From Elusimicrobiota bacterium (lineage in GTDB: Bacteria; Elusimicrobiota; Elusimicrobia; UBA1565; UBA9628), in assembly GCA_033875325.1 (NCBI GenBank), contig JANRKA010000111.1:249-64248 (forward strand): a DNA stretch of 64,000 nt. Reading direction: 5' to 3'. The translations under genes and the position numbers were made by a program. Of this stretch, positions 26,140 through 42,918 are shown one piece after another. Under the pieces are notes generated by a model. It saw only the letters and a program-made list of their open reading frames with translations, did no database searches and had not been told where the DNA came from. Every line of letters begins with the position of its first letter. Within the stretch, counting starts at the first letter, position 1.

Positions 26140-27669
26140 ATTCACCGTCGGGGCACGGGAGACGAGGCGGCGGCGCCGCACGAGGGCGAAAAGCCGCTGC
26201 TCGATGACGGTGTCCGAGCGGCCCGCCCGGAAGTTGCGCCAGGCGCGCAGGAGCGCGGCGGGGTGCAGGAGGTAGTGGAGCCCGTAGAACACGCACAGCC
26301 CCAGGACCCGGTAGAAGGCGATCTCCCGGGCGCCTACGTTCTCGCAGTAGTTGGTGGGCTGGCTGACGTCCATGAAGGTCATGAGGCTTTCGAAATAGGG
26401 GCGGTCCATGCGCGGGATGGAGCCCGTTTTGCGCAGGTAGTCGTAGAGCTCGGAGCCGTGGTAGGGCGAATAGGTATAGAGGCCGCAGTCGTCCACGCCC
26501 GACAGCGCGAAACGCGCCGCGGCCCAGACGGTCTTGAGCATGTCGGCGCGCGTTTCGCGCGGGAAGCCGATGATGAGGTTGCACTTCACGAAGATGCCCT
26601 CGCGCTTGGCGTGACGGATGGACTCGTAGAGGCGGGGCAGGTTCACCTTCTTCTTGATGTCCTCGAGCACGCGCTCCGAGCCGCTTTCGGGCGCGTAGGT
26701 CATGTTCGTGCAGCCGGTGGCCGCCATCGCGGCGAGCACCTCGGCGTCCAACGCCTCGGAACGGGTGCCGCTGGGCAGCTGCCAGGTGAAGCGCAAGCCG
26801 CGGTGCTCGATGGCGCGGCAGAAATCCATCACCCAGGACTTCTTGACGATGGCGGTGAGGTCGTAGAAGTCTATGTTGTCGGCGCGGTAGGCCTTCTGGT
26901 AATGCTCGATCTCGTCGAGCACCCGCTCGGGGTCGCGCATGACGTAGCGCGTGGTCCACATCAGCGGATTGGAGCAGAAGGTGCATTGATAGGGGCAGCC
27001 GCGCGTGGCCACCAGCGGCATGGAGCGGCCGCGTTCGACGCCGTGTCCCTCGCCCACGCGGAAGTACGGCTCCAGGTCGAAGAGGTGCCAGGCCGGCAGG
27101 GGCAGGTCGTCGGGCGCGCGCAGGCGCGCGCGCGGGGGGTTGGCGACGGGCGCTCCGCCCTCGCCGCGGTAATGCAGGCCGGCGATGGCCGCCGTCGAGC
27201 CGCGGCCGTCGAGTGCGTCCGCGAACTCCACCATCGTCCGCTCGCCCTCGCCGGATGCCACGAAGTCCACCTGCGGCGAGTCGCGCAGGATGTATTCGGC
27301 GCACGCCGTGGCGTGTTCGCCGCCGACGATGATGGGCGCGTCCGGGAAGCGGGCGCGCAGGGCGGCGATGACGCCTTCGATGTGGGGCCAATCCTGCGAG
27401 AACATCGTGGTGACCCCGATGGCGTCCGGGCGCGCCCGCGCGCGCGCCGCGATTTCTTCCGACGAAAGGCCGCGGTAGCGCACGCCCGGGCCGTAGGAGA
27501 CGCCGATGCGGTCGATGGCCTCTCCCAGGCCGTCGATGCACTCGACCTCGTGGCCCGCCGCGAGCAGGCTCGACGCGAGATAGGCGATGGACAGCGGCAT
27601 GGTCACGGGCGCGCTGCCGCTGGCGGCGGAGAAGACCGACGGAGGCCGCACGAGCAGGAGGCGGGCCAC
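26137..27669 (-). CDS. Cobalamin-binding-domain (class B type) radical SAM enzyme
   Basis: N-terminal B12-binding-like Rossmann (LLLVRPP..., DAIGVTTMF, IIVGGEHAT). RGCPYQCTFCSN CX3CX2C motif. GTG 27669 shares one base with the upstream TAG stop; ATG 27600 is the alternative. Confidence 0.8.
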   Translation of the reverse strand: MARLLLVRPPSVFSAASGSAPVTMPLSIAYLASSLLAAGHEVECIDGLGEAIDRIGVSYGPGVRYRGLSSEEIAARARARPDAIGVTTMFSQDWPHIEGVIAALRARFPDAPIIVGGEHATACAEYILRDSPQVDFVASGEGERTMVEFADALDGRGSTAAIAGLHYRGEGGAPVANPPRARLRAPDDLPLPAWHLFDLEPYFRVGEGHGVERGRSMPLVATRGCPYQCTFCSNPLMWTTRYVMRDPERVLDEIEHYQKAYRADNIDFYDLTAIVKKSWVMDFCRAIEHRGLRFTWQLPSGTRSEALDAEVLAAMAATGCTNMTYAPESGSERVLEDIKKKVNLPRLYESIRHAKREGIFVKCNLIIGFPRETRADMLKTVWAAARFALSGVDDCGLYTYSPYHGSELYDYLRKTGSIPRMDRPYFESLMTFMDVSQPTNYCENVGAREIAFYRVLGLCVFYGLHYLLHPAALLRAWRNFRAGRSDTVIEQRLFALVRRRRLVSRAPTVN

Positions 27670-28622
27670 TAGGGCTCGGAGGGGGCGGCGAGGTTGTGGC
27701 GCTTGTCCACGACGTAGAGCGGCCGAGCCTTCACCTCGGAGTGGATGCGGCCGACGTATTCGCCCAGGATGCCGATGGAGATGAGCTGGACGCCGCCCAG
27801 GAAGAACATGCCGGCGGTCAGGGTGGCCCAACCGGGGATGACGCTGCTCGAATCGGCGAACAGGCGCCAGAACACGACGTAGGCGGTCCACAAGAACGCG
27901 CCGGCCGCGATGAAGGAGCCGAAATACATGGACCACTGCAGCGGCTGCTCGCTGAAAGTGAAGATGCCGTCGAGCGCCAGGCGCATGAGCTTGGCGAGGG
28001 TGTACTGGGAGCGGCCGCTCTCGCGCGCGGCGCGTTTGTACTCATGTCCGGTCTGGCGGAAGCCGACCCAGCTGCGCAGGCCGCGCACGAAGCGGTGCCG
28101 CTCGGGCATCGCGTTCATGAGGCGCACCACGCGCGCGCTCATCACGCAGAAGTCGCCGGAATCCAAGGGGATGGGCACGGCCGCGAGCCCGCGCAGGATG
28201 CGGTAGAACGCGGCGTAGGCCGTCCTCTTGAGGAATCCTTCCTGGCGGTCGCGCCTGACGGCGTAGACGACGTCGTAGCCCTCTTGGAGCTTGGCGTACA
28301 GCTCGGCGACGAGTTCCGGCGGGTCCTGCAGGTCGCCGTCGATGACGGCGACGGCGCCGCCGCGGGCGTGCTGCAGGCCGGCCGTCACCGCGATCTGATG
28401 GCCGAAATTGCGCGAGAGCGCGAGCCCGCGCGCCCAGTCGTGTTTGCGGCAGGCGGCCTCGATGAGCGCCGGGGTGCCGTCGACGCTCCCGTCGTCGACG
28501 AACACGACTTCATGGGTCAGGCCGAGGGCGGGAAGCGCGGTCTCCAGCCGCGCCAGGAGCCGGGGGAACACCGCGCTCTCGTTGTAGAGCGGCACGACCA
28601 GCGACAGCTGCGGCGTCTTCAC
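27669..28622 (-). CDS. GT2 polyprenol-phosphate glycosyltransferase (GtrB/ArnC/DPM1-like)
   Basis: LSLVVPLYNE, VFVDDGSVDGT, IDGDLQDPPE, two C-terminal TM helices. GTG start in a GTGA overlap. Confidence 0.85.
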   Translation of the reverse strand: MKTPQLSLVVPLYNESAVFPRLLARLETALPALGLTHEVVFVDDGSVDGTPALIEAACRKHDWARGLALSRNFGHQIAVTAGLQHARGGAVAVIDGDLQDPPELVAELYAKLQEGYDVVYAVRRDRQEGFLKRTAYAAFYRILRGLAAVPIPLDSGDFCVMSARVVRLMNAMPERHRFVRGLRSWVGFRQTGHEYKRAARESGRSQYTLAKLMRLALDGIFTFSEQPLQWSMYFGSFIAAGAFLWTAYVVFWRLFADSSSVIPGWATLTAGMFFLGGVQLISIGILGEYVGRIHSEVKARPLYVVDKRHNLAAPSEP

Positions 28623-29402: not shown

Positions 29403-30908
29403 ATGAGCCCGAACGCGCGCGCCGGCGGGCGCGAGGACCTGCCGCCGCTGCTGCTTCTCCTGGCGGCCGCGTTCGTCTGCCGCGGCGGGCCGGCCGGCTT
29501 GTTCGGCCTGGGCTTCTATCTCGACGATTGGTCGCTCCTGTGCGACGCCGCTTTCCATGAGGGCGCGAGCCCGTTCCTGGACGGGTTGAAGACGCACGCC
29601 TCGCGCCCCTTCTCGTTTCTGGCCTGGACGGTGCCCTATCTCCTGTTCGGGCTGAAGGCGCCGCTGTGGCACGCGTTGATGACCGCCCTCCAATGGGCGG
29701 CGAGTTTCGCCGCTTACCGCGCCTTCCGCGGCTTCGGCGTGGGCCGCGGCGCGGCCCTGCTCGGGGCGGCGCTTTTTCTCGCGCTGCCCAACAAGGACGC
29801 GACCGTGTATTGGCCCGCGGTCTCGCTGCTCAACACCTCGGCGCTCCTGCTCTGGCTGGGCTCGTGGCTGGCTCACGCCCGCTACGCGGCCGCCGGCGGC
29901 ACGCGCTGGCTGGTCGCGGCCGCGGTCATGCTGGCGGCGTCGCTCGGCTTTTATGAGCAGGGCTTCTTCCTCCTCCCGGTCTGGCTACTCGCGCCCGGCG
30001 CCGACGCCCGCCGGCTCAAACGCAGCCTGCTCGTCTGCGGCGCGGCCTTGCTGGCGTTCGCGGCTTACAAGTTCGTCCTGCTGCCCCGATTCCTGCCCTA
30101 CACCAAGAACGTGCGGGCCTCGCCGGGCCACGCCGTGTTCGTCTATTACATGGCGGCGCGCGCCTGGCTGGACCCGCGCTGGCTGCGTTATCTCGCCGGC
30201 TGCGTCGCGGAGGCGGCCATGCGGGCGCCGCTGTTGGCCGCGGCGGCGCTCGCGCTGCCGTGGGCCGCGTGGGCCGCGACGAACCGGGACGCCGACGAGC
30301 CGGGCGAAGACGGCCCGCGGCGCCTCGTCCTCTGGGGAGCCGCCGTTTGGCTCCTCGGTTATCTGCCGTTCTGCTTCAGCGAGTACGCGCCCGCCGCTTA
30401 CGACGAGATGAACAGGCTCAACCAGCTTCCGGCTCTCGGGGCGGCGGCCGCGTTGTGCGGGCTTGCGTCGGCGACGGCGGCGCGCCGCGCGGTCCTGGCG
30501 GGACTCGCGGCCTTCGGCCTGCTCGCGCACGTCGAGTTCGCGGAGATCTGGCAGGAATCCTATCGGCGCCAGCTGCAGGTGCGCCGGCGCGTTCTCGAGG
30601 AACTGCCGAGGTGGCCGCGCGACAAGGGGCTCGTCATCCGTCTGCCCGAGGACCGCGTCGCGCGCAAGGCGCCCGTCTTCATCGCCAAATACGACGCGTC
30701 AGGCGCGATCCGGCTGTGGACGGGGGACCCGCGGCGCGAAGCGTGGCCGGTGGTGCCGCAGACGCGCTTCGAAGCGGACGCGGCCATGCTCTACGGGGAA
30801 CGCCGGGCGTACGAATCCCTCCTGCTCCTGGACATGACGACGGGCCTCTTGAGCCCTCTGTCCGACGCGGCGGCGCGGCGCTCGCTGCCGCCTCCCGGCG
30901 GAGGCTAG
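29403..30908 (+). CDS. Polytopic membrane protein, GT-C-like (ArnT/PMT/GtrC-type) putative glycosyltransferase
   Basis: About 10 or more hydrophobic segments, early loop motif FYLDDWS, soluble C-terminal domain. Divergent from the GtrB-like GT2 operon. Confidence 0.5.
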   Translation: MSPNARAGGREDLPPLLLLLAAAFVCRGGPAGLFGLGFYLDDWSLLCDAAFHEGASPFLDGLKTHASRPFSFLAWTVPYLLFGLKAPLWHALMTALQWAASFAAYRAFRGFGVGRGAALLGAALFLALPNKDATVYWPAVSLLNTSALLLWLGSWLAHARYAAAGGTRWLVAAAVMLAASLGFYEQGFFLLPVWLLAPGADARRLKRSLLVCGAALLAFAAYKFVLLPRFLPYTKNVRASPGHAVFVYYMAARAWLDPRWLRYLAGCVAEAAMRAPLLAAAALALPWAAWAATNRDADEPGEDGPRRLVLWGAAVWLLGYLPFCFSEYAPAAYDEMNRLNQLPALGAAAALCGLASATAARRAVLAGLAAFGLLAHVEFAEIWQESYRRQLQVRRRVLEELPRWPRDKGLVIRLPEDRVARKAPVFIAKYDASGAIRLWTGDPRREAWPVVPQTRFEADAAMLYGERRAYESLLLLDMTTGLLSPLSDAAARRSLPPPGGG

Positions 30909-31470: not shown

Positions 31471-31472
31471 GC

Positions 31473-31489: not shown

Positions 31490-31531
31490 CATACCTTATT
31501 CTGTGTTCATAATTTGTACGATGGGCCGGAT

Positions 31532-32497
31532 ATGAAGCCTGGCCTCTCCGGGTCCACGGTGCTCGTCACCGGCGCGTACGGCTTTTTGGGCCAAGGGCTG
31601 GTCGCGGCACTGCTCGACGCGGGCGCCTCGGTCGCGGCCGTGGGCCGGGACGCCGGCAAGGCGCGGGAGCGTCTGGGCGAGCGCCGGGGATTGCGCTTCA
31701 TCGCCGGCGACGTCAACGAACCGCTCGCCTACGACGGCCCGGCCGACTTCGTCGTCCACGCGGCCAGCGCCGCCGCGCCGAAGCGTTTCGGCGTCGACCC
31801 CGTGGGCGTGCTCTCGCCCAACGTGTTCGGAACCCGCAACCTGCTCGAACTGGCGCGCGCCCGCAAGACGCGCAAGTTCCTTTTCGTCTCCAGCGCCGAG
31901 GTGTACGGGGTCGTGCCCGAGTCCCGCCAACCCATCCTCGAGTCGGAGCCCGGCGGCGTGGACCCCACGGCGCTGCGCTCCTGCTACGCCGAATCCAAGC
32001 GCATGGGCGAGGCCCTGTGCGCGGCCTGGCACCGACAACACGGCGTGCCCGCCGTCATCGGGCGCCTCTTCCACACCTACGGACCCGGCATGGACCCCGA
32101 CGACGGCCGCGTGTTCGCGGATTTCACGGCCGACGCGGTCGCCGGGCGGGCCATCACGGTCAAGGGCGACGGGCTCGACCGCCGCGCGTTCTGCCATCGC
32201 GACGACGCCGTGGCCGGCCTGCTGACCTTGCTCGAGCGCGGCGTCCCCGGCGAGGCCTACAACGTGGCCAACGACGAGGCCGAATGCGGCGTGTTGGAAC
32301 TCGCCGAGCGGATCCAACGCCTGTTCCCGAAGCGGGTGCCCGGCGTCATCAAGGCGCCGCGTCCCGCCGGCCCCGCCTTCGCCGCCAGCCCCGTGCGCCG
32401 CTCGCTGCCCTCCACGGCCAAGCTGCGCGCCCTGGGCTGGGCGCCGCGCATCGGCCTCGACGAGGGCTTCCGCCGCACCGTGGAGAGCTACCTATGA
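31532..32497 (+). CDS. NAD-dependent sugar-nucleotide epimerase/dehydratase (SDR)
   Basis: VLVTGAYGFLGQGL glycine motif, YAESKRMGE (YxxxK). Confidence 0.85.
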   Translation: MKPGLSGSTVLVTGAYGFLGQGLVAALLDAGASVAAVGRDAGKARERLGERRGLRFIAGDVNEPLAYDGPADFVVHAASAAAPKRFGVDPVGVLSPNVFGTRNLLELARARKTRKFLFVSSAEVYGVVPESRQPILESEPGGVDPTALRSCYAESKRMGEALCAAWHRQHGVPAVIGRLFHTYGPGMDPDDGRVFADFTADAVAGRAITVKGDGLDRRAFCHRDDAVAGLLTLLERGVPGEAYNVANDEAECGVLELAERIQRLFPKRVPGVIKAPRPAGPAFAASPVRRSLPSTAKLRALGWAPRIGLDEGFRRTVESYL

Positions 32498-33393
32498 GCG
32501 TTCTCAAGCTGCGCGAGGAGTTCCTCGCCGGCCGTCTGGACAAGCCCGCGTACATCAAGGCCATGACCGCGGAGCACGCGGCGCTGCACGAATACGCCGT
32601 CCTGCTCAAGGACTCGCAAGTCGAGCGCCTGGACATCACCGAGGACGGCGTCGTCGCCGTCACGCGCGACGGCCTGCGGCTCGTCCTGGTGTCCGGCGAC
32701 GCGCGCCTGGCGCAGGCCGAGATGCTGAACTTCGGCAGCTACGAGCAGGAGTTATGGGACACGGCCTTCGCCTTGGTCCCGAAAGGCGCGATCGTCTACG
32801 ACGTCGGCGCCAACGCCGGCGTCTTCGCCCTCGCCCTGGCGCGCCGCGTCCCCGGCGCCGTCGTGCACGCCTTCGAGCCCGTCCCGACGACCTTTGCCCT
32901 GCTCGAACGCCATCTGGCGATGAACGGCGGCGCGTCCGTGCGGCCGCACCCCTACGGCCTCTCGGACAAGACCGGGACCGTGACCTTCCACATCTCCGAC
33001 CAGGGTTCGGCCAACGCGTCGGCCGCGCAGCTGGGCAACGGGCCCACGCTGACGGCGGAGGGGAAGCTGAGGACGATGGACGGCGTCGCTGGCGAGCTCG
33101 GCGACCCCGCCTTCGTCAAATGCGACGTGGAGGGCGGCGAACTGCTCGCCTTCCGCGGCGGGCTCAAGACCTTGGAGCGCGCCAAACCCGTCGTGATGAC
33201 CGAGATGCTGCGCAAATGGGCGGCGGGCTTCGGCTACCACCCCAACGACATCATCGATTTATTCGCCGGGCTCGGCTACCGTTGCTTCGATTCCCGGCTC
33301 AAACCCTTCGGCCGCGTCGACGAGAAGACGTCGGAGACGAACTACTTCTTCCTCCACCCGGCCAAACACGCCGGGCTCATCCCCGCGGCCTGA
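32494..33393 (+). CDS. FkbM-family methyltransferase
   Basis: ATGA overlap. VYDVGANAGVFALALA..., FEPVP, DVEGGEL blocks typical of FkbM. Confidence 0.8.
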   Translation: MSVLKLREEFLAGRLDKPAYIKAMTAEHAALHEYAVLLKDSQVERLDITEDGVVAVTRDGLRLVLVSGDARLAQAEMLNFGSYEQELWDTAFALVPKGAIVYDVGANAGVFALALARRVPGAVVHAFEPVPTTFALLERHLAMNGGASVRPHPYGLSDKTGTVTFHISDQGSANASAAQLGNGPTLTAEGKLRTMDGVAGELGDPAFVKCDVEGGELLAFRGGLKTLERAKPVVMTEMLRKWAAGFGYHPNDIIDLFAGLGYRCFDSRLKPFGRVDEKTSETNYFFLHPAKHAGLIPAA

Positions 33394-33405: not shown

Positions 33406-35313
33406 TCAGCGGCCCGCGCGCAACGGCGCCATCTCGGGCGTGGCGTCGAGCTTCTCCGACGCGTCCTTCACCTGTTTGCGCAGCGACACGCCTTCCTCGA
33501 CCGGCTTCGGGGTCCACAGGGTGACCGCGTTGCGGCCGAACTTGCGCAGCTGGTAGGCGAAGTATTCCGCGAAGTTCTTCATCGCGGCCCGGAAGCCGCG
33601 GCGGCGGAATTCCTTGACGCCGATGACGAGGGGGATGAGGCGCCGCAGGTGGTAGAGCGCGATGGGGTGGCGCAGGAGGATGGGGCCGAGTTCGGTGGCG
33701 CCCTGGATCTTCCCGCTGCGGTAATCCCGATCCATCTGCCGGATGGCGGCCTTGATGTCCTCGAAAGAGCCGCTGAGGCCGGTGATGACCTTGGAGTCGG
33801 CGAAATAGGTCTTGCCGTCGCTGTCGCGCACCGATACGCCGTAGGGCTTGTAGTGGACCCGGTTCCAGAGGTCGAACTCCTTCAAGCCGAACTTCCGGAT
33901 GTAGGCGTAGTTGGCGCTGGCGCGGATCTGGTGAGCCCAGGACTTCCAGATCAGGTGCGGGACCTCGGTGTGGTTGACGGTCGAATCGATGTCGCGCGCG
34001 TTTTTGTCCGAAACGCGGAACAAGTAGGCTTCCTCGCCGTCGATGGTCGGCTCGATGTGGCCGCAGACGCGGCCGGATTCGTACAGCGGCGTGCCCGGCA
34101 GGGCCTGGGCGTAGTTGACCGAAAGCTCCGCGGGGTGGACGAAAGGGTCCTCGCTGTAGACCGCGCGCAGGAAGGCGTCGGTCTCCTCGATGGTCTCCTC
34201 GGTCTCGCCGGGCATGCCGACGACCATCTGGGGGCTGTAGTAGAGGTTGGCGGCCGGAGTGAGCTTCACGACCTTGTAGTTGTCGGCCAAGGTCAGCGCC
34301 TTCTCCATGACCGCGAGCATCTTCTCGCTGCCCGTCTCCGTGCCGTAGGCGACGCTGGTGCAGCCGGCGTCGTACATCTTCTTGAGCGACTCCGCGTTGA
34401 TGCGGTTGACCCGGATCCCGCCCACGCCCCACAACACGTCGAACTTCTTGATCATGTCGCAGAACGGATGCAGCCAGGCCGCGTGCGTGCCGAAGTTCTC
34501 GTCCGTGAAATACACGAAGCCGATGTTGTAGCGCCGGATGAGCTCTCCCAGGCGCTTCTCGATGAGCTCGACGGGCATGTAGCGGATGCCTTTCGTGAAG
34601 CGGTGGCAGAAGGTGCAGCGGGCCACGCAGCCCTTGGAGGCGTAGAAGCGGCCGAAGCGCTTGCCGCGCCGCTTGGGGTCGTAGTAGCGGATGTCCGAGA
34701 CGAAAACGCCGTGCTGGCCGAGGTCGGCGGAGAAGCAGCGCTCCACTCCGGGCGTGGCGTCGGCGATGTCCCAGTCCACGTCGAAGATCTCCGTGTCCTC
34801 GAGCTGCGGGGCGTAGGGCGTGATGACCATCTTGCGGTTCTCGTCGCGGAAGGCGATGCCCTTGATGGCGCCGAGCTCCTGAGGCGACATCGTGCCGGCG
34901 ACCCAGTGGTCGACGATCTCGCGCATGGTGACTTCGCCTTCGCCCGTGCAGCAGATGTCGATCTCGGTCTTGGCCATGAGCACGTTGACGTTGGCCACGA
35001 GGTTGCCGCCGCAGACGATGAGAAGGTCCGGGTACATCTTGCGCAGGTCGGCGGCGAGCTGCTTGACGAACGCGTAGGAGGTGGAGACCACGGCGCTCAG
35101 GCCCACGATGTCGGGTTTTTGGAGCCGGAAATACTCGAGGACTTCCTCGTATTTGGGCCGCAGGATGTTGATCTCGTAGAGCGACACGTTGTCGTAGCCG
35201 TGGCGCTTGAGGGCGGTCATGATGGCCAGCGACGCGATGGGGAGGTGGGATGACGGAGCCCGCAGCGGGATGGTGGCGAAGACGATCTTCGGGTTCTTCG
35301 TCTTGGTGGTCAT
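33406..35313 (-). CDS. Cobalamin-binding-domain (class B type) radical SAM enzyme
   Basis: N-terminal B12-binding-like domain (PDIVGLSAVVSTSY, LIVCGGNLVA). KGCVARCTFCHR CX3CX2C motif. 635 aa. Confidence 0.85.
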   Translation of the reverse strand: MTTKTKNPKIVFATIPLRAPSSHLPIASLAIMTALKRHGYDNVSLYEINILRPKYEEVLEYFRLQKPDIVGLSAVVSTSYAFVKQLAADLRKMYPDLLIVCGGNLVANVNVLMAKTEIDICCTGEGEVTMREIVDHWVAGTMSPQELGAIKGIAFRDENRKMVITPYAPQLEDTEIFDVDWDIADATPGVERCFSADLGQHGVFVSDIRYYDPKRRGKRFGRFYASKGCVARCTFCHRFTKGIRYMPVELIEKRLGELIRRYNIGFVYFTDENFGTHAAWLHPFCDMIKKFDVLWGVGGIRVNRINAESLKKMYDAGCTSVAYGTETGSEKMLAVMEKALTLADNYKVVKLTPAANLYYSPQMVVGMPGETEETIEETDAFLRAVYSEDPFVHPAELSVNYAQALPGTPLYESGRVCGHIEPTIDGEEAYLFRVSDKNARDIDSTVNHTEVPHLIWKSWAHQIRASANYAYIRKFGLKEFDLWNRVHYKPYGVSVRDSDGKTYFADSKVITGLSGSFEDIKAAIRQMDRDYRSGKIQGATELGPILLRHPIALYHLRRLIPLVIGVKEFRRRGFRAAMKNFAEYFAYQLRKFGRNAVTLWTPKPVEEGVSLRKQVKDASEKLDATPEMAPLRAGR

Positions 35314-35373
35314 GGGGGGGCCTCGGCGGGGGCGTAGTGGGGCTTCGACGGTAATTTTACTACATTGCGGCCG

Positions 35374-37089
35374 TCAGGTCCCTTCCATCTCCGTCGGTTT
35401 GACCTGGGGTTCCATGTCGGTCATGGGGCGGCCGAAGGCGATCTTGGGGTAGGCGTTGGCGGTCATCGGGACGGCCACTTCCAGCAGGAACGGCGCGGTG
35501 GGGTCCTTCCACAAGGCGGCCAGCCCCGCGGCCACGCCGGCGGGGCCCTCCACGCGCGCCGCGCCGATGCCGTAGGCCTTGGCCACCGCGACGAAGTCCG
35601 GCGCGGAGTAGCCGTCCACGGTGGAGCCGTAACGCGCGTCGAAATAGCTCTCCTGGAACTGGCGGACCATGCCGTGGCATTCGTTGTCGAGCACGACCAT
35701 CTTCACGGGCAGCTTGTGGTGGGCGATGGTCTGCAGTTCCTGGACGTTGAGCTGGAAGCCGCCGTCGCCCGCGACGGCGAGCCAGGGCTTGCCGCCGGAG
35801 GCGAACACCGCGCCCATCGCCGCGGGCAAGGCGAAGCCCATCGCGCCCATGCCGCCCGAGGTGTGGAACTCCTGGGCGGGGGTCAGGCGGGCGGACTGGG
35901 CCGCCCACATCTGGTGCTGGCCCACGTCCACGCACCAGCCCGCCGCGGCGCCGGAGGCGGCGGAGAGCTCGCGCATGAAGAGGTTGGGATTGACGCCCTG
36001 GAGGCCGGCCAGCTCGTTCTCCTCGGGCCACTGCCGCCGCAGCCCGTCGATCTCGGCCAGCCAGGCGGAGCGGTCGCGTCCGGCGCCCGCCGCGAGCGGG
36101 GCGGCCTCCTCGAGGAATGCCGCGAGGTCGGCGTGAACGGTCGTGCAGCCGGGCACCCGGTTGTTCATCTCGGACGCGTCGGCGTCGACGTGCACGATGG
36201 TCCGCCCTTTGCGCCAGGACTCCACGTCGGCGCCGGTCTGTCGGATGTCGAGGCGGCTGCCCAGGACCAGCACCGCGTCTGCGCGGCCCATGGCGAGGTT
36301 CGTCCAACGGTTGCCGTAGCTGCCGATGAGCCCGGCGCGCAGGGGATGGCCGCCCGGGAGGGCGTCCACGGCCATCAAGGAGTGGATGACGGGCGCGCCC
36401 AACGCCTCGACGAACGCGCGGAAGGCGGCGCGGGCGCGGGACGCGCGCAGGCCGCCGCCGACGAGGATGAGAGGGCGTTCGGCCTTGGCGATGACGGCCA
36501 GCGCCGCGGCGACGGAGCCCGCGGGGGCGCGGCGCCCGGGCTCGGCGACGACGCGCCTGACGGGGTCCTTGAGGTCCGCGCGCTGAAGGTCCATGGGGAT
36601 GTCCACGAGCACGGGTCCGGGGCGTCCGGACAAGGCGACGCGGAAAGCCCGCTCCAGCGTCGGGGCGATGTCCTCGGCCTTCGTGACGCGGTAGGCGGCC
36701 TTCGTCACCGGGCCGGCCATCGCGACGACGTCGGTCTCTTGGAAGCCGAGTTGGCGCACGCCGCGCGCGCCTTTCTGCTCATGGAGGTTGACCTGGCCGG
36801 TGATGAACACCGCGGGCGAGGAGTCGAAATGGCAGGAGCCCACGCCGGTGAGCAGGTTCACCGCGCCCGGCCCGCTGGTGGCCATCGCGACTCCGGGCGT
36901 GCCCGCGACGCGGCCCCAGGCGTCGGCCGCGAACGCCGCCCCCTGCTCGTGGCGGACGCTGACGAGGCCGGGCGCGCCGCGGCGGTGGAAGGAGTCCACG
37001 AGATGCGCGATCATGCCGCCGACGACCTCGAAGGCGCGGCTCGTGCCTTGCGCGGCGACGAAATCGGCGATCCAGTCGGAGGCTTTCAC
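35374..37089 (-). CDS. Thiamine-diphosphate-dependent enzyme, acetolactate-synthase-large-subunit-like (YerE-like candidate)
   Basis: GTG 37089 in a GTGA overlap with the rfbH stop. ATSGPGAVNLLTG; ThDP motif GDGGFQLNVQELQT...VVLDNE. Confidence 0.8.
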   Translation of the reverse strand: MKASDWIADFVAAQGTSRAFEVVGGMIAHLVDSFHRRGAPGLVSVRHEQGAAFAADAWGRVAGTPGVAMATSGPGAVNLLTGVGSCHFDSSPAVFITGQVNLHEQKGARGVRQLGFQETDVVAMAGPVTKAAYRVTKAEDIAPTLERAFRVALSGRPGPVLVDIPMDLQRADLKDPVRRVVAEPGRRAPAGSVAAALAVIAKAERPLILVGGGLRASRARAAFRAFVEALGAPVIHSLMAVDALPGGHPLRAGLIGSYGNRWTNLAMGRADAVLVLGSRLDIRQTGADVESWRKGRTIVHVDADASEMNNRVPGCTTVHADLAAFLEEAAPLAAGAGRDRSAWLAEIDGLRRQWPEENELAGLQGVNPNLFMRELSAASGAAAGWCVDVGQHQMWAAQSARLTPAQEFHTSGGMGAMGFALPAAMGAVFASGGKPWLAVAGDGGFQLNVQELQTIAHHKLPVKMVVLDNECHGMVRQFQESYFDARYGSTVDGYSAPDFVAVAKAYGIGAARVEGPAGVAAGLAALWKDPTAPFLLEVAVPMTANAYPKIAFGRPMTDMEPQVKPTEMEGT

Positions 37090-38411
37090 AGGGCTTTGAA
37101 GAAGGCGTCGAAGCGCTCGAGCATGTAGGCGACGCGCGCCTCGTCGATGGAGGGGTGCACGCCCACCCAGAAGGTGCCGCGCATGACTTGGTCGGCGCCG
37201 GTCAGAGAACCCACGCGGCGGTGCGCGACGCCCTTGAAGTAGGGCTGACGCAGGATGTTGCCCGCGAACAACGGGCGCGTCCCGACCATGTTGGCCTCGA
37301 GGAACGAGGTCAGCTTCTCGCGTTTGAACGGGGCGCCTTCGCGCACGGTCAAAGGCAGGCCGAACCAGGAGGGCTCGGAGTCCGCCGTGGCCTCCGGCAG
37401 GATGAGGTGCGCCTCGTGCCGCTTCAAGCCCGCCACGAGCGCGTCGAAGTTGCGCCGGCGCGCGGCGACGAACCGGTCCAGGCGCTTGAGTTGGACCGTG
37501 CCGACCGCGGCCTGCAGGTCGGTGGCCTTGAGGTTGTAGCCCGCGTTGGAGTAGGTGTACTTGTGGTCGTAGCCGTGCGGCAGTTCGCCCAGGTCCCAGT
37601 CGAAGCGTTTGCCGCAGGTGTTGTCCTGGCCGGTCGGGCACCAGCAGTCGCGGCCCCAGTCGCGGAAAGACTCGAGCGGCCGCTTGAGCGAGCTCTTGGA
37701 GGTGACGACGGCTCCGCCCTCGCCCGTGGTGATGTGATGCGCCGGGAAGAAGGAGAAGGTGCCGGCGTCGCCGAAGGTGGAGACGAGTCTGCCCCGGTGC
37801 GTCGCGCCCAGCGCGTCGCAGCAGTCCTCGATGAGCCAGAGTCCCTTCTTCTCGCAGAGCTCGGCCAGCTTCGCGGCCTCGAACGGGTTGCCCAGCGTGT
37901 GCGCGAGCATCACGGCCTTGGTCTTGGGCCCGACGGCCTCCGCCACCATGTCCGCGGTGGCGTTGTAGGTCGGGAGGTGGACGTCCACGAACACGGGCGT
38001 CAGCCCGTTCTGCAGCACGGGGTTGACCGTGGTGGGAAAGGACGCGGCGGTGACGACGACCTCGTCGCCGGGCTTGAGCGCGCGCTCCGCCAGGGAGGGC
38101 GCGGTGAGCGCGGAGAGCGCGAGCAGGTTGGCGGAGGACCCGGAATTGACGAAGAAGGCGAAACGCGCGCCCGCGGCCTTGGCCAGTTCCGCCTCGAACG
38201 CGTCGGCGTAGCGCCCCGCGGTCAGCCAGAAATCCAGGCTCGCGTCCACGAGCGCGGCGACCTCGTCCTCGTCGAACCACTTGCCCGACGGAGGGATGTA
38301 GGTTTTGCCCGGCTCGAACGCCCTCGGGGCGAAGCGCTCTCGCGCGTAGGCGCGGGCGGCGCCCAGCGCGGCGGCGCGTTTCTCGGGGTCGGGGGCGGGG
38401 CGCAGGCTCAC
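37086..38411 (-). CDS. rfbH: CDP-4-keto-6-deoxy-D-glucose 3-dehydrase (E1; RfbH/DdhC)
   Basis: FSFFPAHHITTGEGG (His replaces the PLP Lys) and the Fe-S motif DWGRDCWCPTGQDNTCGKRF. GTG 38411 in a GTGA overlap. Confidence 0.9.
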   Translation of the reverse strand: MSLRPAPDPEKRAAALGAARAYARERFAPRAFEPGKTYIPPSGKWFDEDEVAALVDASLDFWLTAGRYADAFEAELAKAAGARFAFFVNSGSSANLLALSALTAPSLAERALKPGDEVVVTAASFPTTVNPVLQNGLTPVFVDVHLPTYNATADMVAEAVGPKTKAVMLAHTLGNPFEAAKLAELCEKKGLWLIEDCCDALGATHRGRLVSTFGDAGTFSFFPAHHITTGEGGAVVTSKSSLKRPLESFRDWGRDCWCPTGQDNTCGKRFDWDLGELPHGYDHKYTYSNAGYNLKATDLQAAVGTVQLKRLDRFVAARRRNFDALVAGLKRHEAHLILPEATADSEPSWFGLPLTVREGAPFKREKLTSFLEANMVGTRPLFAGNILRQPYFKGVAHRRVGSLTGADQVMRGTFWVGVHPSIDEARVAYMLERFDAFFKAL

Positions 38412-39475
38412 GGGCGTCCCGCCGGGACGGCGGCCGCGTAGTCGGCGATCTGGCGGCGCGTATAGGCGCGCGCGTCGAAGCCGGGCGCGGAGGCGGCCTT
38501 GTACCAGACCATGGCGGCGGACACCGCGCCGCGGGCGTCCCACACCGGCGACCACTTCAAGCGCGTCCGGGCGAGCGTGGAGTCCAGGCGCAGCGCGGCG
38601 GCCTCGTGCGGGGTTTGGGCCGGCTGGGGTTTCCAGGCGGCGTCCCCGCCCCAGGCCGCGGCGGCGGCGTCGGCCACCTGGGCGACGGTGACGCCGTCTT
38701 CGGCCGGGCCGAAGTTCCAGGCGCGGGCCGCGTCCCGGTCGCCGGCGAGCAGGCGCGCGCCGAGCGTGAGGTAGCCCGACAGCGGCTCCAGCACGTGCTG
38801 CCAGGGGCGAATGGAGCTCGGATTGCGCACGAGAGCTTCGCGTCCCGCCGCGAAGGCGCGCGCGCAGTCGGGCACGAGGCGGTCGGCGGCGAAATCGCCG
38901 CCTCCGACGACGTTGCCCGCGCGGGCCGAGGCCACGGGCAGAGAGAACGAGCGGCGATAAGACGCGGCGACGACTTCGGCGCCGGCCTTGCTCGCGCTGT
39001 AGGGGTCGTGACCGCCCAAGGAGTCGGCTTCGGCTCGCGGGCGGGGGTCCTCGACGCCTTCGTAGACCTTGTCGGTGGTGACGACGACCAGCGCCTTGGC
39101 CGTCGGCGCGCGGCGCGCGGCGTCGAGCACGCGCGCGGTGCCCATGACGTTGACCTCGAAGGTGTCGAGCGGCTCCGCGTAGGAGCGCAGGACCAGGGCC
39201 TGAGCCGCCAGGTGGAACACGGCCTCCGGGCGAGCCGCGGCGAAGGCGGCGTCCACGGTTTTCTGGTCGCGGACGTCGCCGATGCGCGACTTCACCGTCG
39301 CGTCGAGGCCCAGACGGGAGTACAGAGGCGCGTCGCCCTCGGGCGGCAGCGCCAGGCCGTGCACCTCGGCGCCGAGCTCGGCCAGCCACAGCGACAGCCA
39401 GGAGCCCTTGAAGCCGGTGTGGCCGGTGACCAGGACGCGGCGGCCCTTGTAGGCGCCCCCGAAAGCCGTGTTCAC
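38408..39475 (-). CDS. rfbG: CDP-glucose 4,6-dehydratase
   Basis: VLVTGHTGFKGSWL, YSASKAGAE. GTG 39475 in a GTGA overlap with the rfbF stop. Confidence 0.9.
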   Translation of the reverse strand: MNTAFGGAYKGRRVLVTGHTGFKGSWLSLWLAELGAEVHGLALPPEGDAPLYSRLGLDATVKSRIGDVRDQKTVDAAFAAARPEAVFHLAAQALVLRSYAEPLDTFEVNVMGTARVLDAARRAPTAKALVVVTTDKVYEGVEDPRPRAEADSLGGHDPYSASKAGAEVVAASYRRSFSLPVASARAGNVVGGGDFAADRLVPDCARAFAAGREALVRNPSSIRPWQHVLEPLSGYLTLGARLLAGDRDAARAWNFGPAEDGVTVAQVADAAAAAWGGDAAWKPQPAQTPHEAAALRLDSTLARTRLKWSPVWDARGAVSAAMVWYKAASAPGFDARAYTRRQIADYAAAVPAGRP

Positions 39476-40239
39476 CAGACTTTCCACGGCGCGCGGCCGG
39501 TGGCCCACAACGACTCGAGGTTCGTTTTGTCGCGCAAGGTGTCCATCGCGCACCAGAAACCCTCGTGACGGTAGGCCCCCAGGCGTCCGCGCCGGGCGAG
39601 CTCGGTGACGGGCTCGCCCTCCCAGCGCGTGGCGTCGTCCTTGACGAGGTCGAGCGCCTTGGGTTCGACGACGAAGAAGCCGCCGTTGATCCAGGTGCCG
39701 TCGGCGTCGGCTTTCTCCCGGAACTCCTTCACCTTGGTTCCGGAGAGGTCCAAGGTCCCGAAGCGCATCGGGGCGCGCACGGCGGTGAGCGTGGCGTCGG
39801 ACTTGCCCTTCTTGTGCGCGGCCGTCAGCGCGCGCAGGTCCACGTCGGAGACGCCGTCGCCGTAGGTCATGTGGAAAGGACCGCGGTCGAGGTAGGGCCG
39901 CACGCGTTTGAGGCGGCCGCCGGTCATGGTGTCGGCGCCGGTGTCCACGAGGGTCACCTTCCACGGTTCGGCGGCGCGGTGATGGACCGTCATCTTGTTG
40001 CGCGCCATGTCGAAGGTGACGTCGGAGCTGTGCAGGAAGTAGTTGGCGAAGTACTCCTTGATGACGAACCCCTTGTAGCCCAGGCAGATGACGAAGTCGT
40101 TGACGCCGTGGGCGGAGTATATCTTGAGGATGTGCCAGAGGATGGGCTTGCCCCCGACTTCCACCATGGGTTTGGGGCGCGTGCCCGTTTCTTCGGAAAT
40201 CCGAGTCCCAAGTCCGCCGGCGAGGATGACCGCTTTCAT
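39472..40239 (-). CDS. rfbF: Glucose-1-phosphate cytidylyltransferase
   Basis: MKAVILAGGLGTRISEETGTRPKPMVEVGGKPILWHI...; 255 aa. Confidence 0.92.
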   Translation of the reverse strand: MKAVILAGGLGTRISEETGTRPKPMVEVGGKPILWHILKIYSAHGVNDFVICLGYKGFVIKEYFANYFLHSSDVTFDMARNKMTVHHRAAEPWKVTLVDTGADTMTGGRLKRVRPYLDRGPFHMTYGDGVSDVDLRALTAAHKKGKSDATLTAVRAPMRFGTLDLSGTKVKEFREKADADGTWINGGFFVVEPKALDLVKDDATRWEGEPVTELARRGRLGAYRHEGFWCAMDTLRDKTNLESLWATGRAPWKVW

Positions 40240-40249
40240 CGTTCCTCCG

Positions 40250-40258
40250 ATTTTATCA
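40250..40258 (-). promoter_or_regulatory. Extended -10 TGaTAAAAT, 10 nt upstream of the rfbF ATG; second copy of the 18-nt cassette
   Basis: Minus strand GTGAAATGATAAAATCGGAGGAACGATG. The TGA is also the stop of the upstream GT2 gene. Confidence 0.4.
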
Positions 40259-41263
40259 TTTCACGCCCGCGGCCGCCCCGAGCTTGCGGGCGGCGTAATA
40301 CAAGGGGGAGAGCCAGGCGTTGGGGTACGGCGCGGCGCTCAGGAGAATCCGGACCAGGTCGGCGTAGGCCCAACCAGAGGCGTCGCGATGGACGAACATG
40401 TTGGCGAGGTCGGGAAGCAGGTGCGCGAGCGCCCGGTTCTTGCAGCGCCGATAGCGGTCTTCGGGAAGGCCGTTTTTGCGGTACTCATCGAGGGCTTCGA
40501 TGAGGCGCACGCTGCGCAGGAACGGGTACAGCGGCGCCCATTCGCGCGCGCCGGTGAGGCAGGCGGTGAGCGGTCCCGGGTGGAAGTAGGCCGTCGAGCG
40601 CGCGAAGGCCTTGGCGAAGATCTTCAAGTGCGGGCAGGTGTTGTCGAAAGTCGAGAGATGGCGGGTGTCGGACACCGCCGCGTCGTCGAGGACGCCGGCG
40701 TTCTTCACCCAGGCTTCTCGCCGGAACACCGACAGGAAGATGCCCAGAAGGAAGTCGAAAGAAACATCAGGGTCCACGAGGTCGAAGAAGGGCAGCGGAC
40801 CTTCCTGGAGCCGGGGCGAGAAGCGCGGCAGCTCCGCGGGGAGGTTCGTCGTGTCGAAGGGCTGGGGGAAGCCCAGGACGAATTCCGCGTCCACGCGGGA
40901 GGCGTTGACGAAGAAATAATCCACGGAAGGGTTGGCGGCGAGCAGGCGCAGCGCGGTGTCCAGAGCGTCGGGGCGCAGCAGGTCGTCGTCGCCGAGAAGC
41001 CAGACGAACTCGCCGCGAGCCGGTTCGACCGCCTTCAGGTAATTCTTCGCCGCGCCGAGATTGGTCTCGTTGCGGCGATAATCCACGCTCATCTTCTTGG
41101 CCATCGCCGCAACGATCGTTGCCGTGTCGTCCGTCGACGCGTTGTCGGAGACGCACACCTGCACCTCGCCCTCGGCGCGCTCGCGCGCGATGCGGATGGA
41201 TTCGAGGCAGTTGGCGAGGTGCCCGGCCCGGTTGTAGGTCGGGACGCAGACGGACAGCTTCAT
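40256..41263 (-). CDS. Glycosyltransferase family 2
   Basis: LSVCVPTYNRAGHL, VSDNASTDDT, LLGDDD. ATGA overlap with the ABC gene stop. Confidence 0.8.
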   Translation of the reverse strand: MKLSVCVPTYNRAGHLANCLESIRIARERAEGEVQVCVSDNASTDDTATIVAAMAKKMSVDYRRNETNLGAAKNYLKAVEPARGEFVWLLGDDDLLRPDALDTALRLLAANPSVDYFFVNASRVDAEFVLGFPQPFDTTNLPAELPRFSPRLQEGPLPFFDLVDPDVSFDFLLGIFLSVFRREAWVKNAGVLDDAAVSDTRHLSTFDNTCPHLKIFAKAFARSTAYFHPGPLTACLTGAREWAPLYPFLRSVRLIEALDEYRKNGLPEDRYRRCKNRALAHLLPDLANMFVHRDASGWAYADLVRILLSAAPYPNAWLSPLYYAARKLGAAAGVK

Positions 41264-42918
41264 CGGGCCGCGGCGGCCAAGACGAAGGAGCGCGGATTCG
41301 CGGGAGCGAAGGCCGCGGCGTCGTGCGTCACGGCCACGACGGGCAGTTCTCGGGCCAGCTCCGCGATGCTCGCCACCAAAGACGCCTTGCTCGCCTCGTC
41401 GAGGCCGTTGGTGACCTCGTCGAGGGCGAGCAGGTCGGCTTCCTGGGCCAGGGCCCGGGCCACGGCGAGGCGGCGGCGTTCGCCGCCCGACAAGGAGCGC
41501 CCGGCTTCGGCGAGCGCGGCGTCCAAGCCGCCGCGGGCGCGCACGAAGTCCGCGGCGCCGGCGCGCTCGAGGCTGCGCCAAAGGGCCGCGTCATCGAGAC
41601 GCCCGGAGGCGTCGAGGTTCTCGCGCACGGTCCCGCTGAAGAGGTGGACTTCCTGCGCGACGTAAGCGATGCGCGCGCGGCGGGTCGTCGCGTCGAATTC
41701 GGCGCCGGAGGCGCCGCGGTAGACGACGCGCCCCTTCTCCGGGGCGAAAAGGCCGGCGAGCAGATTGACGAGGGTGGTTTTGCCGGCGCCCGAGGGTCCG
41801 GTGACGAGCAGGAGGCGGCCGGGTTCCACGGTCAAAGTCACCCCGTCGAGCACGCGCCGTCCGCCGTGCGAGTAGGTCACGGCGTCGAGACGCGCGGCCG
41901 CGAGGCGCTCGCCGAGCGGCGCGCGGTCGGGCCCGGCGGGCACCGTCACGAGCGCGGCGACGGGCGCGATGCTTCCCGAGAGCCGCGTGAGGTTGCCGAT
42001 GGCGTTGACGAGGCCGTTGAGTTGGGCCGCCGCGCGCGTCGCCAGGACGCCGACGCCTCCCAGCGCGGCGAGCCCGCCTTCGGAGCCCCACGCGGCGACG
42101 CCCAGCAGGATCAGGCCCATGCCCAGCGGGTTGAAGGCGGTGAGCAGTCCGAGGGTGCCCCCGAGTTGGAGCTCGCGGTTATAGATGTCGTCTTGCCGCC
42201 GCAGACCGCGCCGCGTCAAGCCGGCCTCGTCGCCGGAGGCCTTGGCTTGGAACAGGCCGCTGAGCGTCTCGGTGAGGTCCGCGGCGAGACCCTGGCGCGA
42301 CTCGGCCTGGCTGCGGGAGAGCCGCGTCTGCAGGCCGTAGACGCCCTTGAGGAAAAGCCACGCGGGCGCGCCGACGGCGACGAGGACGATGAAAAGGGAA
42401 GGCGCGAGCGCCACGGCCATGCCGGTCAACAGGCCGGCCGTGAGCACGGCGTACACGGCGGTGAAAAACGAGGTGACCAGCTTGGTCAGGGTCGCCGCCT
42501 CCTCGGTGAGCGCTCCGGTCCAGCGTCCGACCTGCTGAGAGCTGAGGGCGTCCCAACGCCCGTGAGCCAGCTTCTCGAAGCAGGCCGCTTGGATGTCGCG
42601 CCGCAGGCGGCCGCCCATCACCGTCTCGATGAAGGTCAACAGCGCCAGGAGCAGTCCTTTGGCGAGGAACAGGGCCCCGACGGCGGCGGCGGTGGGCGCG
42701 CCGAGTCTATTGAGGAGAGGCGTCAGGAAGCCGGTGTCGGGCGCCGCTCCGGCGGCGACGAGGCGCACGAGTTGGATCCAGGCCAGCCCGTCGATGGCGG
42801 CGCTGACGGGGGTGAGCACGTAATAGGATGCCAACAGGGCCCACAGCGCGCGGTCGGGGAGGCCGCAGCAGCGAAGGGTTTTCCATGCTTGCCGCAGGGC
42901 GTCGGCCAGCTTGTTCAT
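41260..42918 (-). CDS. ABC exporter, fused permease/ATPase half-transporter (MsbA/PglK-like)
   Basis: Six-TM-type N-terminal half. Walker A GPSGAGKTT, signature LSGGERRRL, Walker B LLALDE. Confidence 0.85.
   Translation of the reverse strand: MNKLADALRQAWKTLRCCGLPDRALWALLASYYVLTPVSAAIDGLAWIQLVRLVAAGAAPDTGFLTPLLNRLGAPTAAAVGALFLAKGLLLALLTFIETVMGGRLRRDIQAACFEKLAHGRWDALSSQQVGRWTGALTEEAATLTKLVTSFFTAVYAVLTAGLLTGMAVALAPSLFIVLVAVGAPAWLFLKGVYGLQTRLSRSQAESRQGLAADLTETLSGLFQAKASGDEAGLTRRGLRRQDDIYNRELQLGGTLGLLTAFNPLGMGLILLGVAAWGSEGGLAALGGVGVLATRAAAQLNGLVNAIGNLTRLSGSIAPVAALVTVPAGPDRAPLGERLAAARLDAVTYSHGGRRVLDGVTLTVEPGRLLLVTGPSGAGKTTLVNLLAGLFAPEKGRVVYRGASGAEFDATTRRARIAYVAQEVHLFSGTVRENLDASGRLDDAALWRSLERAGAADFVRARGGLDAALAEAGRSLSGGERRRLAVARALAQEADLLALDEVTNGLDEASKASLVASIAELARELPVVAVTHDAAAFAPANPRSFVLAAAAR

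Follow-up and report, generated by a model that had tools for sequence, protein, structure and literature searches.

The stretch of DNA analyzed here, called the window, comprises 64,000 nucleotides from an Elusimicrobiota bacterium (GCA_033875325.1, contig JANRKA010000111.1). It contains four adjoining genes, rfbF, rfbG, rfbH, and a gene for a thiamine diphosphate (ThDP)-dependent enzyme, which very probably act together to make a cytidine diphosphate (CDP)-activated 3,6-dideoxy sugar and then to add a carbon branch to it, as is done for yersiniose in Yersinia. From its sequence we class the ThDP enzyme as YerE-like and not as an acetolactate synthase (ALS). The module is a member of a known, widespread, and recently catalogued family, here in a poorly studied phylum. 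We consider it reasonably likely that a YerE-type branched-sugar module is embedded here in a large gene cluster for a surface glycan.

Genes were called from third-position GC; the G+C content of the window is about 70%, so high that raw lists of open reading frames (ORFs) consist mostly of spurious frames. The four genes sit within a 22-gene co-directional array that extends on the minus strand from 59972 to 33406. Among public sequences, the closest relative is a metagenome-assembled genome (MAG) of an uncultured Elusimicrobia bacterium, in which the corresponding locus (L003, on the 3.1-Mb contig CBDIQC010000001.1) encodes a ThDP protein that is 92% identical and keeps the gene order over more than 20 kb. 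Comparisons were made with a sample of 89 loci having an RfbH gene next to a YerE-like gene (the window and 88 others). The window-like loci were gathered via the contigs encoding homologous proteins; genome scans seeded with the window ThDP protein or with alignment A1 gave mostly ALS among the matches listed.

The four-gene block

The products of rfbF, rfbG, and rfbH scored well above the cut-offs of the NCBIfam models for these enzymes (Table 1). The ORFs of the module are intact and have a strong coding bias, with a third-position G+C fraction (GC3) of 0.92–0.94. The start codon of rfbF is an ATG 16 nt past the stop codon of an upstream gene for a family 2 glycosyltransferase (GT2). For rfbG there is an alternative in-frame GTG start 33 nt upstream, and its overlap with rfbF would then be 37 nt. 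A promoter and terminator scan of positions 31000–41500 gave nothing that exceeded the shuffled expectation.

A preliminary description of this DNA, made from the sequence alone, had given the limits of the four genes and a GTGA overlap at each of their three junctions. The limits proved to be exact, and the overlaps were confirmed on the minus strand at 39475–39472, 38411–38408, and 37089–37086. That description had also taken the overlaps to make the four genes one unit. Four-nucleotide ATGA or GTGA overlaps occur at 12 of the 21 junctions in the 22-gene array, and because they are so common the overlaps alone cannot delimit a four-gene unit. The unit itself stands on other grounds, because the same rfbF-rfbG-rfbH-ThDP block recurs across phyla: it is shared by the 88 other sampled loci, which include some from Planctomycetota (Tautonia), Verrucomicrobiota, Bacteroidota, and Bacillota as well as from unclassified MAGs.

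RfbH aligned end to end with the Yersinia E1 enzyme (PDB 3BCX) with a score of 541 bits. Its His225 aligned with E1 His220, the residue altered in the H220K entry 3BB8; this His replaces the Lys of the aminotransferases. RfbH residues Cys198, Cys256, Cys258, and Cys266 aligned with E1 residues C193, C251, C253, and C261, which we take to be the ligands of the [2Fe-2S] cluster described by Agnihotri et al. (2004). The local Cys motif of RfbH is DCWCPTGQDNTC, that is, C-x-C-x7-C, and the whole four-Cys pattern is C-x57-C-x-C-x7-C. Thus the two E1 hallmarks previously claimed for RfbH, a His in place of the Lys that binds pyridoxal 5′-phosphate and the C-x-C-x7-C motif, were both present in the alignment. 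A four-Cys motif for E1-type enzymes is stated in PMC8987622.

Two loci carry what look like decaying copies of the module. In L220, insertion sequence (IS) elements and 23S_rRNA_IVP genes are scattered among rfbF, rfbG, and rfbH, and the gene call for RfbH (8273–9940) gives a product of 555 aa whose N-terminal part matches PemK_toxin. In L221, the RfbH gene is broken into three fragments.

Identity of the ThDP enzyme

The Pfam domains TPP_enzyme_N, _M, and _C matched the ThDP enzyme with 106, 119, and 152 bits, respectively, and both the catalytic Glu48 (in HEQ) and GDGG at 441–444 were invariant in a 20-sequence alignment. Its top NCBIfam names are acetolactate synthase, yet it fell below every ALS cut-off. 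On model TIGR00118 it scored 428 bits against a cut-off of 538, and on all the other ALS models its scores were far too low. RfbH-linked control sequences, including some from ddhDABC-yerE-yerF loci, scored 387–443 bits (Pseudomonas simiae, Yersinia similis, a Gallionella MAG, and Tautonia), whereas true ALS enzymes (Bacillus and a flavobacterium) scored 723–897 bits. On the Xsc model NF005713, the ThDP enzyme scored 244 bits against a cut-off of 620.

The best solved relative was PDB entry 5AHK (430.6 bits over residues 1–561); E. coli acetohydroxyacid synthase (AHAS) I gave 296.6 bits. Entry 5AHK was deposited as "acetolactate synthase II, large subunit," and we take it to be PpYerE of Pseudomonas protegens, in keeping with the locus context of its relatives. 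A genome scan with the 5AHK sequence found genes of Pseudomonas, Yersinia, Vibrio, and Legionella that lie in ddhD-ddhA-ddhB-ddhC-yerE-yerF loci; in Pseudomonas WCS417, genes of this kind are annotated as ddhA-D, yerE, and yerF (PMC4509608).

A neighbor-joining tree was built with 200 bootstraps from 125 sequences: the window protein, 5AHK, 88 products of RfbH-linked ThDP genes, and 35 of ThDP genes with no RfbH gene nearby. The sole characterized YerE-type member in the tree was 5AHK; YpYerE, ErwE, MMAR_2332, MyGE, and JanthE were left out. The window protein and 5AHK fell in a clade of 92 sequences together with 87 of the 88 other RfbH-linked sequences (L085 lay outside) and with those of three fragmented or cut loci that had not counted as RfbH-linked. 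The 32 ALS-type sequences lay outside this clade. The exact 92-member clade was recovered in 186 of 200 bootstraps, and a clade containing the window protein and 5AHK and no ALS-type sequence was recovered in all 200. With this placement apart from ALS, we class the enzyme with the YerE-like ThDP carboligases of the DC superfamily. The preliminary description had proposed a pathway to a CDP-3,6-dideoxy-4-ketohexose followed by a YerE-type ThDP enzyme, a proposal borne out by the NCBIfam scores, the E1 alignment, and the placement in the YerE clade. It had also named, beforehand, clustering with ALS or with sulfoacetaldehyde-type enzymes as a result that would speak against the proposal; neither the tree nor the ALS and Xsc scores gave such a result. 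Within the clade, the window enzyme belongs to a separate sub-clade with no characterized member, which in this tree had 15 members and a bootstrap value of 200/200.

Table 1. Genes of the four-gene block and other features of the window discussed in the text
Feature	Coordinates	Strand	Length (aa)	Supporting matches and remarks
rfbF/ddhA, glucose-1-phosphate cytidylyltransferase	39472..40239	−	255	TIGR02623 equivalog, 424 bits (cut-off 300)
rfbG/ddhB, CDP-glucose 4,6-dehydratase	38408..39475	−	355	TIGR02622 equivalog, 424 bits (cut-off 278)
rfbH/ddhC, E1-type CDP-6-deoxy-L-threo-D-glycero-4-hexulose 3-dehydrase, pyridoxamine 5′-phosphate (PMP) + [2Fe-2S] type	37086..38411	−	441	NF011936, 658 bits (cut-off 423)
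YerE-like ThDP carboligase (fold of the flavin adenine dinucleotide [FAD] type)	35374..37089	−	571	TPP_enzyme_N, _M, and _C domains
B12-binding radical S-adenosylmethionine (SAM) protein	33406..35313	−	635	PF02310, PF04055; CxxxCxxC at 229–236; 60 nt downstream of the ThDP gene
Extended short-chain dehydrogenase/reductase (SDR), candidate side-chain ketoreductase, putative functional YerF analogue	31514..32497	+	327	PF01370, 174 bits; YxxxK intact
FkbM-family SAM methyltransferase	32494..33393	+	299	PF05050; TIGR01444, 88 bits (cut-off 37.7); overlaps SDR stop by 4 nt
GtrB/ArnC-type polyprenyl-phosphate glycosyltransferase (GT2), candidate loader onto undecaprenyl phosphate	27669..28622	−	317	PDB 5EKP (sll0501), 266 bits; ArnC, 166–176 bits
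Polytopic membrane protein, possible GT-C-like partner of the GtrB-like enzyme	29403..30908	+	501	At least 6 hydrophobic transmembrane-like segments; no Pfam match
GT2 glycosyltransferase, alternative transferase candidate	40256..41263	−	335	PF00535, 75 bits; immediately upstream of rfbF

Side-chain reduction and methylation

In the preliminary description no YerF-type reductase was seen in the window. This needs revision: an extended SDR with a PF01370 domain is encoded there (Table 1), which is not orthologous to YerF and which travels with YerE-like genes, and we regard it as a candidate for the reductase in the YerF role. The SDR gene and the FkbM gene that follows it are transcribed convergently toward the rfb-ThDP operon. 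The genes at the yerF position in the Pseudomonas, Yersinia, and Aliivibrio loci also encode PF01370 extended SDRs. For the Aliivibrio fischeri protein the best match in the window was this SDR (71 bits, 24% identity); Pseudomonas and Yersinia YerF were tried as orthologues of any SDR in the window and rejected, having no significant match.

Orthologues of both the SDR and the FkbM protein lie beside YerE-like genes in L136 (62% and 73% identity, respectively), L138 (53–57% by blastp and tblastn, and 48%), the Bacillota MAG locus L084 (49% and 42%), and the Prosthecobacter locus L088 (41–43% and 39%). Further SDR orthologues adjoin YerE-like genes in several proteobacterial loci, and FkbM accompanies the SDR beside YerE-like genes in nine sampled loci. 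Over the whole sample, 83 of the 89 loci have an extended SDR of one of several subtypes no more than 5 kb from the ThDP gene (median distance, 18 nt); an SDR is near the ThDP gene also in 47 of the 51 loci that lack a linked gene for E3, the reductase discussed below. The FkbM enzyme is a probable methyltransferase of the branched sugar, given the company that it keeps.

Delivery of the sugar

Two sets of genes are candidates for passing the sugar on to the glycan. Homologues of the GtrB/ArnC-type GT2 adjoin YerE-like genes in 30 of the 89 loci; among NCBIfam models it matched PgfS with 243 bits and ArnC with 184 bits, both under the cut-off. In L136 the gene order is ThDP, unknown, FkbM, SDR, GT2, and a homologue of the window membrane protein, so that the latter, which is 38% identical, directly follows the FkbM-SDR-GT2 genes; a weaker homologue follows the ThDP gene in L137. 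This arrangement suggests a route of the GtrB plus GT-C style, in which the sugar would pass through an undecaprenyl-phosphate-linked form. The GT2 encoded immediately upstream of rfbF is 86% conserved at the same position in L003 and has no specific link to YerE-like loci elsewhere.

When window positions 26137–30908 were compared with L003 positions 15593–16212, four window genes between those for MarR and a phosphoglycosyl transferase were missing in L003. They encode the polytopic membrane protein, a Methyltransf_23 enzyme, the GtrB/ArnC-like GT2, and a second B12 radical SAM protein of 510 aa, which is 26% identical to the one in Table 1.

Proposed pathway and donor of the branch

In the pathway that we propose, RfbF would form CDP-D-glucose and RfbG would convert it to CDP-4-keto-6-deoxy-D-glucose. 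RfbH, with its PMP and [2Fe-2S] cofactors, would remove the 3-hydroxyl group to give CDP-4-keto-3,6-dideoxy-D-glucose, using electrons from a reductase encoded outside the locus. The YerE-like enzyme would then decarboxylate an α-keto acid and place the acyl carbanion on the C4 ketone, creating a tertiary alcohol. The side-chain ketone would be reduced by the SDR, acting as YerF does, after which the FkbM enzyme would methylate the sugar. Finally, either the GtrB/ArnC-like GT2 with the polytopic membrane protein or the GT2 encoded upstream of rfbF would pass the sugar to the glycan.

Several observations weigh against this pathway. No electron donor for E1 was identified within the 64-kb window. 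The ThDP enzyme is only 35–43% identical to those of the proteobacterial YerE-type loci related to 5AHK, and because its sub-clade has no characterized member, donor specificity cannot be transferred to it. The SDR is of a different subtype from YerF of Pseudomonas or Yersinia, and its best solved relative is a UDP-glucuronate decarboxylase. The compared region of L003, the closest relative, has neither the GtrB-like GT2 nor the membrane protein.

The most likely donor is pyruvate, which would give a two-carbon branch. We adopt it as the default because there is no gene for an aldolase that would build a longer donor: neither the window genes nor the nine window-like loci with Pfam annotation showed an aldolase domain. 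The alternative is that the YerE-like enzyme takes a longer or functionalized α-keto acid, such as 2-oxobutyrate, hydroxypyruvate, or a 4-hydroxy-2-oxo acid, and makes a long branch like that of erwiniose or caryophyllose. The donors of characterized family members range from C2 to C8, and pyruvate is not accepted by ErwE (PMC9306805, PMC12247030). The window enzyme, moreover, lies in a sub-clade distinct from the 5AHK-related group, which includes the pyruvate-using PpYerE, and a gene for a 2-hydroxyacid dehydrogenase is located 9 kb upstream. The described long-branch clusters, however, have an aldolase gene beside the ThDP gene (PMC9306805), and in L226 the 2-hydroxyacid dehydrogenase gene keeps company with nonulosonic-acid genes, while the other window-like YerE loci lack it. 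We judge a donor other than pyruvate to be unlikely, although it is the strongest of the alternatives considered here. The 2-hydroxyacid dehydrogenase itself (46391–47356) was considered as a supplier of an unusual keto acid and rejected; its gene travels with NeuB, LIC12162, and ABC genes.

The B12 radical SAM gene and the nonulosonic-acid module

The last gene of the 22-gene array, which follows the ThDP gene, encodes a B12-binding radical SAM protein. Its closest homologues (74%, 73%, and 53% identical) lie in clusters with genes for NeuB, a CMP-sugar synthase, PglD, a CBS-nucleotidyltransferase, HisHF, LIC12162, and ABC proteins, and no RfbH or ThDP gene was found near them. The corresponding set of nonulosonic-acid genes makes up the upstream half of the array in the window (59972–41260). 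Because the nearest homologues are in such clusters, which have neither RfbH nor ThDP genes, we assign the protein, as a probable member, to the nonulosonic-acid module, and do not count it in the branched-sugar pathway in our main reading.

The other possibility is that this protein C-methylates the branched sugar or its side chain, which would be new chemistry. Its gene is on the same strand as the ThDP gene with no terminator-like site in the 60 nt between them and could be transcribed together with it, the arrangement is conserved in L003, and its NCBIfam matches, all below the cut-off, include class B radical SAM methyltransferases. Set against these points are the three homologues in nonulosonic-acid clusters and the other window-like YerE loci, which lack such a gene; at that position, L136 and L137 encode an unrelated protein of 475–479 aa. 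Of the sampled loci, only the window and L003 have a B12 radical SAM gene beside a YerE-like gene. A role in C-methylation of the branched sugar thus appears quite improbable, and assignment to the nonulosonic-acid module is preferred. In that module, the gene context in the window and in L223, L224, L225, and L226 suggests a cobalamin-dependent reaction that C-methylates a legionaminic- or pseudaminic-type sugar or its acyl group; for the window protein, no NCBIfam model reached its cut-off.

The nonulosonic-acid genes include two minus-strand fusions of NeuB with a CMP-sugar synthetase, at 47340–49145 and 55603–57315, whose domain orders are opposite (NeuB-SAF-CTP_transf_3 and CTP_transf_3-NeuB-SAF, respectively) and therefore imply two different nonulosonic acids. 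Genes for a UDP-GlcNAc 2-epimerase, a PglD-like acetyltransferase, a CBS-nucleotidyltransferase, a PhyH dioxygenase, and a HisH/HisF-like pair lie near them.

Source of electrons for RfbH

In the proteobacterial loci related to 5AHK, a gene for DdhD, or E3 (323–335 aa; Fer2, FAD_binding_6, and NAD_binding_1 domains), lies directly upstream of ddhA. According to the preliminary description the window has no E3 gene, and this held in every search of the 64 kb. No Fer2, FAD_binding_6, or NAD_binding_1 domain was found by Pfam among the called genes of the window. With two verified DdhD seeds, tblastn of the window gave a best E value of 1.5. A hidden Markov model (HMM) built from 38 E3 sequences was run against all 7329 six-frame ORFs from the window and the 50 other loci without E3, and the best E value was 0.22; the same HMM recovered all 38 positive controls with at least 428 bits. 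Neither tblastn at E = 10 nor the six-frame HMM search revealed an uncalled or divergent E3 ORF in the window.

The same description had implied that the absence of E3 was an oddity. It is not peculiar to the window. A linked E3 gene is present in 38 of the 89 loci that have RfbH and YerE-like genes, and in 51 there is none within about 10 kb. All 38 E3-linked loci belong to a group at least 53% identical to 5AHK and are mostly from Gammaproteobacteria; among the 51 others are all window-like loci as well as Gallionella, Sideroxydans, and Methylobacter-type loci, and nine of them with independent Pfam annotation also show no E3 domains. There is also a precedent in SpnQ, an E1 homologue that runs on ferredoxin/ferredoxin-reductase or flavodoxin/flavodoxin-reductase pairs and not on E3 (PMC8987622). 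By analogy, a general ferredoxin or flavodoxin reductase system most likely supplies the electrons for RfbH; the alternative source would be an unlinked E3 gene elsewhere in the genome.

The His and all four Cys residues are retained in RfbH of 50 of the 51 loci without E3, and the redox function of the Fe-S cluster is therefore evidently retained in them. This bears on another possibility, that without E3 RfbH fails to carry out 3-deoxygenation, being a transaminase or inactive, and that the ThDP enzyme uses CDP-4-keto-6-deoxyglucose or the whole module is nonfunctional. The lack of an E3 gene in 64 kb would fit such a failure, as would the aminotransferase activity of SpnQ when no reductase is supplied (PMC8987622). 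E1 under comparable conditions, however, had no transaminase activity (PMC8987622), the five conserved residues in the window and the other loci point to selection on redox function, and the intact ORFs with their GC3 values do not look like those of a nonfunctional module. We consider a failure of 3-deoxygenation to be very unlikely and continue to favor deoxygenation by RfbH with electrons from elsewhere.

A fifth Cys in the Cys-rich loop of E1, Cys257, corresponds to RfbH residue 262. It is a Cys in all 38 E3-linked loci; in the 51 others it is C in 17, K in 24, and other residues in 10, the window having Q. This covariation with E3 may reflect a role of the position in E3 docking, or it may reflect phylogeny only.

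A broader proposal, which we hold tentatively and consider less likely than not, combines these points. The E1 enzymes here and in most YerE-type loci outside the gammaproteobacterial group would have no dedicated E3 anywhere in the genome and would be reduced by housekeeping ferredoxin or flavodoxin, so that E3-independent synthesis of CDP-3,6-dideoxyhexoses would be the commoner mode, and the window-type sub-clade, with its own SDR subtype and FkbM, would make an undescribed methylated branched sugar.

Annotation of YerE-like proteins as acetolactate synthases

Hundreds of proteins about 60% identical to the ThDP enzyme (e.g., P0012, P0013, and P0022) are labeled "acetolactate synthase-1/2/3 large subunit." For 11 such proteins the encoding contigs or loci were checked, and all 11 are found with RfbH-type genes; the labels look like a systematic mis-annotation. 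No ACT or ALS small-subunit, IlvC, or IlvD domain was found by Pfam among the window genes. That the ThDP protein is a biosynthetic or catabolic ALS, or another ThDP enzyme of primary metabolism merely located in the cluster, is what its top NCBIfam and Pfam names and many database labels would say, but its scores on TIGR00118 and the Xsc model, its position outside the ALS group in the tree, the lack of ilvN or ilvC nearby, the overlap of its start with the rfbH stop, and its synteny with rfbH across phyla leave this reading a negligible chance.

Other genes of the window

The glycan cluster ends with a GT4 gene whose stop codon is overlapped by the gene for a copper amine oxidase (20499–22427, minus strand), an odd neighbor for sugar genes; L003 has the same arrangement. 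A minus-strand gene at 14367–19991, with a GC3 of 0.96, encodes an 1874-aa protein in which Pfam showed no domain. The protein has a signal-peptide-like segment at its N-terminus and a (PA)n linker, and its C-terminus, which ends in TLTFQF, looks like an outer-membrane β-barrel; a gene with an RcpC/CpaB domain comes after it. Outside the glycan cluster on the plus strand are genes for a 713-aa protein that has a caspase (Peptidase_C14) domain at its C-terminus (11442–13583) and for a YgiQ-type radical SAM protein with Radical_SAM_N and DUF3362 domains (3168–5120).

Comparison with known systems

YerE places a pyruvate-derived acetyl group on CDP-4-keto-3,6-dideoxy-D-glucose, and YerF reduces the side chain; ErwE, MMAR_2332, and MyGE use functionalized C4–C8 keto acids, and their clusters hold an aldolase that builds the donor (PMC9306805). 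"YerE-like" enzymes are a described subclass, for which structures of PpYerE and JanthE are listed (PMC12247030). The preliminary description knew of YerE as the only such precedent. That view was too narrow: ErwE, MMAR_2332, MyGE, JanthE, and PpYerE have been characterized (PMC9306805, PMC12247030), and over 200 enzymes of the YerE-like type and their clusters were predicted by cluster similarity in a 2024 study, as that study is cited in PMC12247030.

The present results extend YerE-type branched-sugar biosynthesis to Elusimicrobia-like bacteria and do not overturn current understanding. They distinguish at least two layouts of the module: a gammaproteobacterial one in which ddhD, for E3, comes first, and a more widespread one that has no E3 gene and keeps the four-gene block. 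A niche question in deoxysugar biosynthesis, which reductase serves E1 when E3 is absent, is thereby sharpened. An unusual branched, probably methylated 3,6-dideoxyhexose is predicted on the surface of an uncultured lineage, and for annotation, the labels of acetolactate synthase large subunit on these proteins, which number in the thousands, look wrong.

Like AHAS (IlvB, IlvG, and IlvI), the window ThDP enzyme has a three-domain ThDP/FAD fold, and the two are 32–41% identical; unlike AHAS, it scores below the ALS equivalog cut-offs, groups apart from the ALS clade, has no small-subunit gene close by, and is found in a sugar-pathway context. SpnQ of the spinosyn forosamine pathway resembles the window RfbH in being an E1-type 3-dehydrase with PMP and [2Fe-2S] whose cluster has no E3. 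It differs in that its substrate is a dTDP-2,6-dideoxy sugar and its pathway makes an antibiotic in an actinomycete, whereas the window RfbH is a close E1/RfbH orthologue for CDP-sugars.

The ThDP enzyme and 5AHK share the catalytic Glu (HEQ), the GDG ThDP motif, and the Val in GMVR, which corresponds to PpYerE V479 cited in PMC12247030. They belong to different sub-clades, and the ThDP motif of the window enzyme ends in DNE, in contrast to the NN of most relatives. The clusters of ErwE (erwiniose, Pectobacterium), MMAR_2332 (caryophyllose, Mycobacterium marinum), MyGE (gastriose), and RhopE (Rhodopseudomonas palustris) resemble the window in having a ThDP carboligase by the genes for CDP-4-keto-3,6-dideoxyglucose and an NAD(P)H reductase. 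The likeness is one of gene content; the long-branch clusters carry an aldolase gene whereas the window has none. The RhopE cluster has a SAM methyltransferase (PMC9306805), as the window has FkbM.

The yersiniose A loci of Yersinia pseudotuberculosis O:VI and Pseudomonas start with ddhD, for E3, which the window operon lacks; their ThDP enzymes are only 35–43% identical to that of the window, and the window SDR is of another subtype, is encoded convergently 2.9 kb away, and is paired with FkbM. With these loci the window nevertheless shares ddhA, ddhB, and ddhC at the equivalog level, a YerE-clade enzyme encoded right after the E1 gene, and a PF01370 SDR.

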